Below, piece after piece: positions 7,210 to 18,480 of a stretch of DNA of 18,480 nt; the stretch's first letter is position 1, and each line of letters starts with the position of its first letter. Origin of the DNA: a virus. Its lineage: Duplodnaviria; Heunggongvirae; Uroviricota; Caudoviricetes. The position numbers and the translations under genes are program-made. The DNA lies in the IMG/VR virus record IMGVR_UViG_2734482533_000002; one strand, given 5' to 3'. Below the pieces are notes generated by a model that was not told where the DNA came from, searched no databases, and saw only the letters and a program-made list of their open reading frames with translations.

Positions 7210-7613
7210 TTTCCCGCAGAAACAGGCTCTGCAGGCCCGGCGTCCTCTGCCTGTTCAGGAGCATCATTCACCACAAACTCATACATACCGGACAGCCGGT
7301 ACACCACGTTTTCAGCATGAGAAATTGCCTCTGTGGGCCAGGTGGTAAGCACTTCCTGCTCAATCTGTTTAACGGCTTCATTCATGGACGGCATCTGCGT
7401 CTTCTTCGGATGGTTATGCCACAGGGACATCGCAACCACAAAAGCGCCGGTTCTGATGGCGTCTTCCACAGTAAACTTCCGGTTGCTGTCTGACTCCGCC
7501 TGTTCTGCCTGCCGTTTCATCAGGTCGAGATGCTCAATACGCTGCAGGGCTGACAGTTCAGAAAGCGTGACGGTCACACCGTTATGTTCAAATGATTCGG
7601 TTTTCAGGAACAT
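7191..7613 (-). CDS. G: Tail assembly chaperone G (140 aa)
   Basis: ORF track 7191..7613; MFLKTESFEHNGVTVTLSELSALQRIEHLDLMKRQAEQAESDSNRKF... recognised as lambda gpG; ATG at 7613. Confidence 0.9.
   Translation of the reverse strand: MFLKTESFEHNGVTVTLSELSALQRIEHLDLMKRQAEQAESDSNRKFTVEDAIRTGAFVVAMSLWHNHPKKTQMPSMNEAVKQIEQEVLTTWPTEAISHAENVVYRLSGMYEFVVNDAPEQAEDAGPAEPVSAGKCSTVS
7209..7215 (-). other. Slippery heptamer G GGA AAG for programmed -1 ribosomal frameshift G to G-T
   Basis: Plus-strand ctttccc at 7209-7215 is gggaaag on the coding strand, 6 codons before the G stop (…AGKCSTVS*). A -1 shift here continues GKVFDGELSFAL…, the T frame. Confidence 0.7.
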
Positions 7614-12906: not shown

Positions 12907-16587
<3,681 letters not shown>

Positions 16588-16613
<26 letters not shown>

Positions 16614-17133
16614 TCAGCAACCCCGGTATCAGTTCATCCAGCGCGGCTGCTTTGTTCATGGCTTTGATGATATCCCGTTTCAGGAAATCAACATGTCGGT
16701 TTTCCAGTTCCGGAAAACGCCGCTGCACCGACAGGGGGATCCCGTCGAGAATACTGGCAATTTCACCTGCGATCCGCGACAGCACGAAAGTACAGAATGC
16801 GGTTTCCACCACTTCAGCGGAGTCTCTGGCATTTTTCAGCTCCTGTGCGTCGGCCTGCGCACGCGTAAGTCGATGGCGTTCGTACTCAATAGTCCCTGGC
16901 TGGAGATCTGTCTCGCTGGCCTGCCGCAGTTCTTCAACTTCCCGGCGCAGCTTTTCGTTCTCAATTTCAGCATCCCTTTCGGCATACCATCTTATAACGG
17001 CGGCAGAGTCATAAAGCACCTCATTACCCTTGCCACCGCCTCGCAGAACGGGCATTCCCTGTTCCTGCCAGTTCTGAATGGTACGGATACTCGCACCGAA
17101 AATGTCAGCCAGCTGCTTTTTGTTGACTTCCAT
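16588..17133 (-). CDS. Nu1: Terminase small subunit Nu1 (181 aa)
   Basis: ORF track 16588..17133; MEVNKKQLADIFGASIRTIQNWQEQGMPVLRGGGKGNEVLYDSAAVIRWYAERDAEIENEKLRR... recognised as lambda gpNu1, with winged-HTH N-terminus. Confidence 0.95.
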
Positions 17134-17310
17134 TGTTCATTCCACGGACAAAAACAGAGAAAGGAAACGACAGAGGCCAAAAAGCCCGTTTTCAGCACCT
17201 GTCGTTTCCTTTCTTTTCAGGGGGTGTTTTAAATAAAAACATTAGGTTACGGCGAAGAAGAACGGAAACGCCTTAAACCGGAAAATTGTCATAAATAGCG
17301 AAAACCCGCG
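17134..17310. other. cosB-like terminase-binding region with three Nu1-binding R elements and an AT-rich IHF-type segment
   Basis: Between the Nu1 start and the cohesive-end core: GGAAACGACAG (17163-17173), its inverted copy CTGTCGTTTCC (17189-17199), and a third related CGGAAACGCC (17263-17272), with an A/T-rich stretch ttttaaataaaaacattagg (17227-17246) between them. This matches the lambda cosB R1-R2-I1-R3 layout as I recall it. Confidence 0.7.
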
Positions 17311-17322
17311 CGCCTTCCGCCC
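17311..17322. other. cosN cohesive-end core (12 nt), variant relative to canonical lambda
   Basis: In lambda orientation the region reads ...GATCCGACAGGTTACG GGGCGGAAGGCG CGCGGGTTTTCGCTATTTATGACAATTTTCCGG. The flanks match lambda cos as I recall it, but the 12-nt core is GGGCGGAAGGCG rather than GGGCGGCGACCT. Confidence 0.6.
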
Positions 17323-17358
17323 CGTAACCTGTCGGATCGCCGGAAAGGACCCGCAAAA

Positions 17359-17373
17359 TGATAATAATTATCA
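17359..17373. promoter_or_regulatory. Perfect 15-bp palindrome TGATAAT-A-ATTATCA, matching the 7-1-7 Fur-box consensus
   Basis: Directly visible: tgataataattatca at 17359-17373, each 7-nt arm the exact reverse complement of the other. Lies about 40 bp from cosN and about 150 bp upstream of the plus-strand RHH-like ORF. Confidence 0.45.
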
Positions 17374-17521
17374 TCTACATGTCACAACGTGCATCTACGC
17401 CATCAAACCACGTCAAATAATCAATTATGACGCAGGTATCGTATTAATTGATCTGCATCAACTTAACGTAAAAACAACTTCAGACAATACAAATCAGCGA
17501 CACTGAATACAGGGCAACCTC

Positions 17522-17755
17522 ATGTCAACGAAGAACAGAACCCGCAGAACAACAACCCGCAACATCCGCTTTCCTAACCAAATGATTGAACAAATTAACA
17601 TCGCTCTTGTTCAAAAAGGGTCCGGGAATTTCTCAGCCTGGGTCATTGAAGCCTGCCGCCGGAGACTGTGCTCAGAAAAAAGAGTTTCGCCTGAAGCAAA
17701 CAAAGAAAAGAGTGACATTACTGAATTGCTCAGAAAACAGGTTAGACCAGATTGA
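17522..17755 (+). CDS. Small basic ribbon-helix-helix (Arc/Mnt-like) putative DNA-binding protein (77 aa)
   Basis: ORF track 17522..17755. After a basic Thr/Arg-rich N-terminus, RNIRFPNQMIEQINIALVQKG-SGNFSAWVIEACRRRL fits the RHH strand-helix-helix pattern (compare Arc PQFNLRWPREVLDLVRKVAEENGRSVNSEIYQRVMESF). Weak SD (AGGG ~10 nt upstream); AT-rich composition. Confidence 0.5.
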   Translation: MSTKNRTRRTTTRNIRFPNQMIEQINIALVQKGSGNFSAWVIEACRRRLCSEKRVSPEANKEKSDITELLRKQVRPD

Positions 17756-17812
17756 AGCAATTTAGATAATCGTGCAGACTACGCCCCCTCATATCACATG
17801 GAAGGTACTACA

Positions 17813-18223
17813 ATGGCTCAGGTTGCCATTTTTAAACAAATATTCGATAAAGTGCGAAATAATTTAAACTATCACTGGTTTTATTCTGAACTAAAACGTC
17901 ACAATGTCTCACATTACATTTACTATTTAGCCACAGAGAATATTCATCTTGTTCTTGAAAACGATAATACGGTTTTAATAAAAGGACAGGGTAAGGTTGT
18001 AAATGTAAGATTTTCAAAAAATAAATGCCTTATAGAAGCCACCTTAAAAGGATTCAAATCAGGAGAGTTATCATTTTACGAATACAGGAAAAATCTTGCT
18101 ACAGCAGGGGTTTTCAGATGGATTACAAATATCCACGAAAACAAAAGGTATTACTATACCTTTGATAATTCATTACTCTTTACTGAGAACATACAGAACA
18201 CTACACAAATATTTCCGCACTAA
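17813..18223 (+). CDS. DUF1398 family prophage protein, YbcV/YdfO-like (136 aa from ATG 17813; track ORF starts at 17798)
   Basis: ORF 17798..18223; the second ATG at 17813 has GGAAGG 7 nt upstream. Product [58 protein letters not shown]...[25 protein letters not shown] resembles, by recall, the E. coli cryptic-prophage proteins YbcV/YdfO (DUF1398). AT-rich codon usage typical of a moron. Confidence 0.7.
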
Positions 18224-18268
18224 ATCATAACGTCCGGTTTCTTCCGTGCCAGAACCGGACTCGCTGGC

Positions 18269-18478
18269 ATGATGAAATATGTGTACCCGGTAACCCCGGT
18301 GTGCATCGTTTTTGATTATTCCCGCACACTCGCGCAGAAGGAGTTCCCCGTCGGGCTACGGTCTCTGTTAATACGGGAATACGGCGACGATTGGATTTGC
18401 CCCTATATTTCCAGACATCTGTTATCACTTAACCCATTACAAGCCCGCTGCCGCAGATATTCCCGTGGCGAGCGATAA
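18269..18478 (+). CDS. Hypothetical protein, open to the window end; weak call
   Basis: ORF track 18269..18478 (MMKYVYPVTPVCIVFDYSRTLAQKEFPVGLRSLLIREYGDDWICPYIS...), no stop before the window end, no convincing SD, no recognised homology. Overlaps a minus-strand ORF (18225..18428) that looks less protein-like. Confidence 0.2.
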   Translation: MMKYVYPVTPVCIVFDYSRTLAQKEFPVGLRSLLIREYGDDWICPYISRHLLSLNPLQARCRRYSRGER

Positions 18479-18480
18479 CC

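Follow-up and report, generated by a model that had tools for sequence, protein, structure and literature searches.

The closest described counterparts of the locus considered here are found in prophages of Escherichia coli K-12 and in phage lambda. In the Qin prophage, nohA, a homologue of Nu1, is followed by ynfO (b4533; 234 bp) and, after a 57-bp gap, by ydfO (b1549; 411 bp). In lambda/HK629 and in the DLP12 prophage, members of both gene families lie next to the cohesive-end site (cos) on the strand opposite to the late genes, in the order ylcI-ybcW-ybcV in DLP12 and as a ylcI-like open reading frame (ORF), lambdap79 and lambdap78 in lambda. The DNA analysed here, called the window below, is a stretch of 18,480 nucleotides from a virus of the Caudoviricetes (IMG/VR record IMGVR_UViG_2734482533_000002), in which an earlier note had singled out positions 17340-18230 as an AT-rich accessory module made of a gene for a ribbon-helix-helix (RHH)-like regulator and a DUF1398 gene, inserted beside cos. 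Because Qin shares the layout, and lambda and DLP12 share both families at the same place, we identify this segment by sequence comparison as this phage's copy of the already known, catalogued but functionally uncharacterised ynfO-ydfO pair. The earlier view that its function is unknown thus holds in the sense that the pair is functionally uncharacterised even in the best-studied phage and host, although the named K-12 Qin/lambda pair had been missed. The reading we favour, with somewhat better than even confidence, is that of two separable accessory genes, a resident repressor-like small gene and an optional AT-rich cargo cassette that carries the DUF1398 gene.

The ynfO-ydfO pair beside cos

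The window represents a lambdoid phage in reversed orientation: A and Nu1 are on the minus strand, next comes cos, and after it the right-end genes. The first gene of the pair is a small ynfO/ylcI-type gene of 77 codons on the plus strand (17522-17755), the product of which belongs to DUF3950 and joins a conserved core, about 50 residues long, to a basic C-terminal tail that varies; the second is a ydfO/ybcV-type DUF1398 gene of 136 codons, also on the plus strand (17813-18223). The window and Qin are alike in gene order, in gene lengths, in the 57-bp spacing and in a Fur site placed between the Nu1 homologue and the small gene; they differ by about 25% in the DUF1398 allele, and the window appears to come from an intact lambdoid phage whereas Qin is a decayed prophage. 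Lambda and DLP12 depart from this layout in having about 0.5 kb with the opposite-strand ybcW/lambdap79 between the two genes, where the window has only 57 bp, and in a shorter small protein (64 aa) with a different C-terminal tail. Between cos and codon 54 of the small gene their DNA is 94% identical to the window; over the DUF1398 block the figure is 83%. Over 17140-18392 as a whole, the identity is 98.6-98.8% with Escherichia phages PhiR49_1 and ev099, and 88% with lambda, HK629 and DE3.

The abrupt shift in composition described earlier is readily seen. GC content is 0.52-0.57 at 14000-17150, 0.43-0.47 at 17000-17750 and 0.32-0.33 at 17750-18200; gene by gene it steps down from 0.53-0.54 in the terminase genes (A, 14688-16613, minus strand, 0.541; Nu1, 16588-17133, minus strand, 0.527) through 0.444 in the small gene to 0.316 in the DUF1398 gene. 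The AT-rich part is occupied by the two co-directional plus-strand ORFs, opposed in strand to Nu1 and A, so that the description of an accessory region beside cos on the strand opposite to the late operon was correct. The proposed span needs trimming at its left end; it does contain the two genes, but its first 180 bp (17340-17521) are cosQ, a Fur operator and a leftward promoter-like site. Placement in the interval between lysis genes and cos can likewise be kept only in part, for the window contains no lysis genes, and it is relatives such as ev099 and Kati that suggest the interval.

The DUF1398 assignment of the larger protein was borne out by a full-length profile match (PF07166, 147 bits against a cut-off of 22, E 3e-43, profile positions 1-119 of 119). 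The protein is 75% identical to YdfO, for which a nuclear magnetic resonance (NMR) structure is available (PDB 2HH8; E 1.4e-69), and 44% identical to the K-12 paralogue YcgX. Compared with lambda, the ratio of nonsynonymous to synonymous substitution rates (dN/dS) is 0.30, and this is a real gene under purifying selection. An alternative upstream ATG at 17798 would give a protein of 141 aa; the start is likely at 17813, because a GGAAGG Shine-Dalgarno sequence lies 8 nt upstream of it and the database proteins have 136 aa. The lambda member, lambdap78, is annotated as 'putative envelope protein', and PHROG 413 carries the label 'head protein'; since the protein has no hydrophobic segment and an isoelectric point of 9.4, the labels 'envelope protein' and 'head protein' are unsupported. 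A possible internal duplication was discarded, as 476 of 2000 shuffles scored equal or better.

Published observations on K-12 relatives of this gene mostly concern expression. Expression of ybcV and ybcW was down 9-10 fold in a pdhR mutant (PMC7660256), ybcV was among the most down-regulated genes under copper (PMC13618251), and ydfO rose about 116-fold by quantitative PCR upon ionic-liquid shock (PMC4077768), in a paper that also cites a report of increased oxidative-stress resistance upon YdfO overproduction. Overproduction of DicC elicits a response of ydfO (bioRxiv 2024.09.21.614188). In a K-12 screen by TraDIS, in which the sites of transposon insertion are sequenced, ydfO was without transposon insertions and was scored 'essential only by TraDIS' (PMC5821084); for a prophage gene such a score may reflect exclusion of insertions from AT-rich DNA or ambiguous mapping of reads between paralogues.

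In our favoured reading, the DUF1398 product would be a soluble, basic, cytoplasmic protein of 16 kDa with the YdfO fold, which probably modifies host physiology and is probably expressed from a promoter of its own. It would be neither a component of the virion, the envelope or the lysis machinery, nor a toxin.

Separability of the two genes and the DUF1398 cassette

A tblastn search of 50,697 phage records found the small gene in 155 and the DUF1398 gene in 43. In phage 434 the order is cosQ-ylcI-bor, with the small gene present and the DUF1398 gene absent. The Shiga toxin (Stx) phage 2851, in which ylcI stands between a TerL-TerS-HNH block and a KilA-N-Rz-lysozyme-holin block, also has no DUF1398 gene; in this phage and its relatives, which have a different packaging module, the small gene lies 41 bp from a divergent HNH gene. 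Conversely, the DUF1398 gene ycgX of K-12 stands alone, without a DUF3950 gene beside it. The two are separable accessory genes and their pairing is not obligate.

The earlier note had taken the pair for a regulator-effector or antitoxin-toxin-like unit. In its type II toxin-antitoxin form, with an RHH antitoxin encoded upstream of a DUF1398 toxin, this proposal is unsupported because the two genes are separable (155 versus 43 records; 434, 2851, ycgX, lambda, DLP12), and we regard it as highly improbable. DUF1398 occurs alone as ycgX and stands apart from the small gene in lambda and DLP12, and the tail of the putative antitoxin is hypervariable while the DUF1398 protein is conserved. Searches of Pfam and PADLOC gave the DUF1398 protein no credible toxin or defence match (the best PADLOC value was 0.025, and a HEPN_AbiA match reached 15.8 bits, under the cut-off of 27). 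In addition, YdfO was made in quantity for the NMR structure, which would argue against strong toxicity. Future work on these genes would do better not to treat the pair as a toxin-antitoxin system.

The boundaries of the separable part could be located by blastn against 434, lambda, 2851, Qin and DLP12. Relative to 434, homology covers 17323-17684 and resumes at 18292-18391, and the intervening 607 bp replace about 104 bp. The left homologous part, which runs from cos into the small gene as far as about codon 54, is common to 434, lambda and DLP12 at 94-97%. The right flank of about 100 bp (18292-18391) is common to 434, 2851, lambda and DLP12 at 89-93% blastn identity; in lambda-type phages it lies upstream of bor, and HK629 annotates a promoter at the corresponding place. 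The cassette of about 0.6 kb so delimited (17685-18291; GC 0.32) comprises the YnfO-type C-terminal tail of the small protein together with the whole DUF1398 gene. Hence the claim of a module inserted beside cos stands for the DUF1398 part, which behaves as an insertion, and fails for the small gene, which is a conserved resident of the slot.

A 607-bp block between conserved flanks has the anatomy of a moron-type cassette. It resembles the bor and lom morons in being a discrete low-GC cassette with conserved flanks, on the strand opposite to the late operon and in the lysis-to-cos interval. It differs from them in its product, a soluble protein without a known phenotype, where those of bor and lom are located in the outer membrane and are known to confer serum resistance or adhesion, and in that a promoter and a terminator of its own are only weakly indicated. 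The candidate promoter, TAGACC and GATAAT with a 16-nt spacer on the plus strand (17743-17770), precedes the DUF1398 gene and falls within the small gene's 3' end; it is a consensus match alone (9 of 12 positions), and the count of such sites in the region is not above that in shuffles. The candidate terminator is a GC-rich hairpin, GUCCGGUU...AACCGGAC, at 18231-18260, which starts 8 nt past the DUF1398 stop codon and lacks a U tract. On either strand it folds at -15 to -17 kcal/mol (z about -1.85). It was not called in a terminator scan and may act as a terminator that is weak or bidirectional. In the scenario we favour, the DUF1398 gene would have landed on this cassette downstream of the small gene as optional cargo.

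Let us consider next whether the pair might form one regulated operon even though each gene can stand alone, with the small DNA-binding protein controlling the promoter of the adjacent DUF1398 gene. The co-directional genes and their 57-bp spacing fit such an arrangement, as does the promoter-like site, which together with an inverted repeat/hairpin straddles the end of the small gene; so does the adjacency of the two genes in Qin. Yet DUF1398 is missing from at least 112 of the phage records with the small gene, an intervening opposite-strand gene of about 0.5 kb is tolerated in lambda and DLP12, and the two upstream regions share no sequence motif. We therefore think a regulator-effector operon unlikely, if not negligibly so.

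Several observations nevertheless count against the two separable accessory genes that we prefer. The genes are adjacent in all 80 of the closest IMG/VR relatives, as a functional pair would be as well; this adjacency says little, because the loci concerned are 97-100% identical. Upstream of the small gene in the window, an operator search found nothing beyond what shuffles gave, and no convincing plus-strand sigma-70 promoter was seen there. Finally, the structure model of the DUF1398 protein was poor and unfit for fold comparison.

The small protein and its relatives in phages and satellites

The small protein matches Pfam DUF3950 at 72.8 bits (cut-off 25), passes the NCBIfam model YlcI/YnfO (NF041551) at 35.2 bits (cut-off 30), matches phrog_949 (E 6e-33) and is 97% identical to K-12 YnfO over 77 aa. 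The family is narrow; at 50% identity it has 108 representatives in a set of 1.84 billion proteins. Compared with the Stx-phage copies, which have unrelated upstream DNA, codons 1-50 give dN/dS of 0.03-0.11 at dS of 0.8-1.6. This is a real gene under strong purifying selection, and its conservation is at the protein level, because the codons are conserved where the upstream DNA is unrelated. Constraint on cos-linked DNA was considered as the cause of the conservation and rejected, since synonymous sites are saturated and the upstream DNA in those phages is an unrelated HNH gene. The C-terminal tail, on the other hand, is hypervariable across the family.

Reference lambda also carries an intact family member by cos, an ORF of 64 aa of the YlcI/YnfO family at about 48109-48303 (complement) of J02459, which is unannotated in J02459 and in NC_001416. 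The small gene is thus absent from the reference lambda annotation despite strong purifying selection on the family.

The label of an RHH-like regulator can be retained only provisionally. The best-scoring family model is DUF3950 and not any named RHH model; none of 22 family members matched an RHH Pfam model at E up to 1, searches of PDB with the single sequence and with the family profile returned no RHH match, and Foldseek of the small protein against PDB returned nothing significant. Comparison by hhalign with Arc (P 0.033, probability 1.5%) and CopG (P 0.43) was not significant. In contrast to the recognised RHH repressors and antitoxins, then, the small protein is without a significant sequence-profile or Foldseek match. 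Even so, RHH proteins such as Arc, Mnt, CopG, RelB and ParD are its best structural neighbours and are of similar size, and like them it appears to have a basic N-terminal arm, a strand motif, a helix, a G-x-x turn and a second helix. The conserved family pattern runs from the basic arm through IRFP, a helix and a G-x-N-F-S turn to an AWV(I/L)(E/D)AC helix, and the register proposed by the (non-significant) hhalign alignment sets NIRFPNQMIEQIN of the small protein against NLRWPREVLDLVR of Arc. Weakly supported as this assignment is, the core of the small protein is most likely a dimeric RHH DNA-binding domain.

Diverged homologues, 36-57% identical, lend separate support to a DNA-binding regulator; they are present in Serratia, Xenorhabdus, Pectobacterium, Klebsiella, Pantoea and further Enterobacterales. 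In most cases they are opposite-strand genes flanked by an integrase and a primase, in islands resembling Gram-negative phage-inducible chromosomal islands (PICI) or helper-embedded satellites. Phage and satellite DUF3950 genes are alike in being small, opposite-strand genes in an otherwise unidirectional element; they differ in their position, between integrase/alpA and primase in the satellites and beside cos in the window. Neither DUF1398 nor Nu1 was ever found with the satellite homologues at the loci examined. An exact repeat of at least 10 nt within 150 bp upstream was present at 11 of 28 diverged loci and in 1 of 28 control windows, the expectation from shuffles being 0.5. These repeats are mostly GTG...CAC palindromes, and an island in E. 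coli CP027459 (locus L004) has two copies of TGGTACGTACCA flanking a TATAAT. The diverged homologues and their palindromes suggest a small DNA-binding repressor, and the link that DUF3950 makes between lambdoid phages and satellites offers a cheap hypothesis, that of a small repressor with palindromic operators.

The CP027459 island deserves a brief description. At L004 (1-8600), and also at loci L005-L008, a lambdoid prophage harbours a satellite-like island, the neighbours of which are a truncated Terminase_2 fragment, an HNH gene and the prophage's own DUF3950 gene. The island's genes include an integrase, an AlpA-like gene of 68 aa, a D5 primase, TerS and a capsid-like gene, along with two DUF3950 genes of which one is fused to a TerS-type helix-turn-helix (HTH); the arrangement fits the 'helper-embedded satellite' configuration. 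A further observation concerns LR881103, deposited as the 'phage' vB_KppS-Ant, which is an induced element of 16.5 kb that has genes for capsid, portal, terminase, primase and integrase and resembles a capsid-forming PICI; a DUF3950 ORF left out of its annotation runs antisense, at 7364-7537, inside a gene annotated as hypothetical.

The occurrence of one narrow family both in lambdoid phages and in integrase-primase islands of Enterobacterales raises the question of whether phage and satellite DUF3950 proteins might regulate each other's promoters. Such helper-satellite cross-talk could be imagined in the CP027459 prophage, where the island sits beside the prophage's own DUF3950 gene. However, the operator-like satellite repeat TGGTACGTACCA is absent from the window and from that neighbouring prophage, and we consider this speculative possibility quite improbable.

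Another speculation would assign the small protein to packaging, that is, it might bind near cos or the packaging genes and modulate terminase expression or cos cleavage. Its gene is always at the lysis/packaging junction, with cosQ as neighbour in lambda-type phages and HNH-TerS-TerL in HK97-type Stx phages, and two diverged members form fusions with the N-terminal HTH of a Terminase_2 small subunit. Such fusions are rare, however (2 of 108 representatives), and the satellite copies are not beside cos; moreover, as the small gene is on the strand opposite to the late operon, it would not be co-expressed with the packaging genes. A packaging-linked factor therefore strikes us as more improbable still.

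A broader alternative, which we judge improbable though a little less so than either of these, takes DUF3950 as a narrow family of small repressors of mobile elements, the phage copy of which would act in helper-satellite conflict or in silencing packaging genes in the prophage, with DUF1398 as unrelated cargo. If this were true, helper phages would carry DUF3950 at the lysis/packaging junction and satellites would carry it at the integrase-primase junction, sometimes fused to the TerS HTH.

Returning to two separable accessory genes as the preferred explanation, we propose that the small gene has long resided at the lysis/packaging junction of lambdoid phages, irrespective of terminase type, and is transcribed in the direction opposite to the late operon. 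Its product, made in the lysogen, would probably serve as a small repressor of transcription or as an autoregulator.

Lambda right-end sequence also turned up in dozens of unrelated 'genomes' (loci L095-L126), including those of Streptomyces, Cohnella, Pedobacter and Enterococcus. The contigs are mostly no longer than about 3.5 kb, and a few are the ends of contigs of lambda length (about 48 kb) or longer. These loci, and many of the ENA protein matches, are evidently contamination by lambda control or spike-in DNA.

The cos region and the sequences flanking the pair

To the left of the pair, the cohesive-end segment cosN (17311-17322) is a variant allele, its plus strand reading cgccttccgccc instead of the canonical aggtcgccgccc. 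Set against canonical lambda, this is GGGCGGAAGGCG versus GGGCGGCGACCT, with five substitutions within 6 bp, and the ends of the window would therefore not anneal with lambda ends. By direct comparison, lambda/HK629, Kati, DLP12 and Qin all have the canonical form; of 74 close IMG/VR relatives, 6 share the variant. The cosQ sequence GGGTCCT (17346-17352, minus strand) is identical to the annotated cosQ of phage 434. An Rfam scan of 17000-18480 gave spurious miRNA matches alone, on the cosB inverted repeat.

Next to cosQ is a Fur-box palindrome (17354-17378, with TGATAATAATTATCA at 17359-17373), the homologue of the K-12 Fur site upstream of nohA/nohB. It matches the consensus at 16 of 19 positions, a score reached by none of 200 shuffles; the lambda-type, 434, Qin and DLP12 alleles all score the same. 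The nohA promoter was selected by Chen et al. as one predicted to be under Fur control, and they showed the Qin site upstream of nohA to be gel-shifted by Fur, and the DLP12-type site upstream of nohB was predicted at 25.3 bits (PMC2189734); the site is also among the Fur-site peaks of a study by chromatin immunoprecipitation and sequencing (PMC3688515). The box overlaps a sigma-70 promoter-like site on the minus strand (17358-17385; GTGACA and TATCAT with a 16-nt spacer, 10 of 12 consensus matches), which points leftward through cos to Nu1. A Fur box over a leftward promoter would imply iron-responsive transcription towards the terminase genes, a possibility apparently undiscussed for lambda. 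We do not claim Fur control of the ynfO-ydfO-type pair; the box better fits the Nu1-directed promoter, and ybcV fell rather than rose under copper stress, which induces iron-uptake genes.

To the right, 18225-18478 contains the conserved 100-bp block, covered by two opposite-strand ORFs. The minus-strand ORF matches an 'Rz-like spanin' PHROG (E 1.7e-11) and the plus-strand ORF is the counterpart of ev099 gp70; what they cover is probably a conserved non-coding or promoter block, and both ORF calls probably artefacts of annotation.

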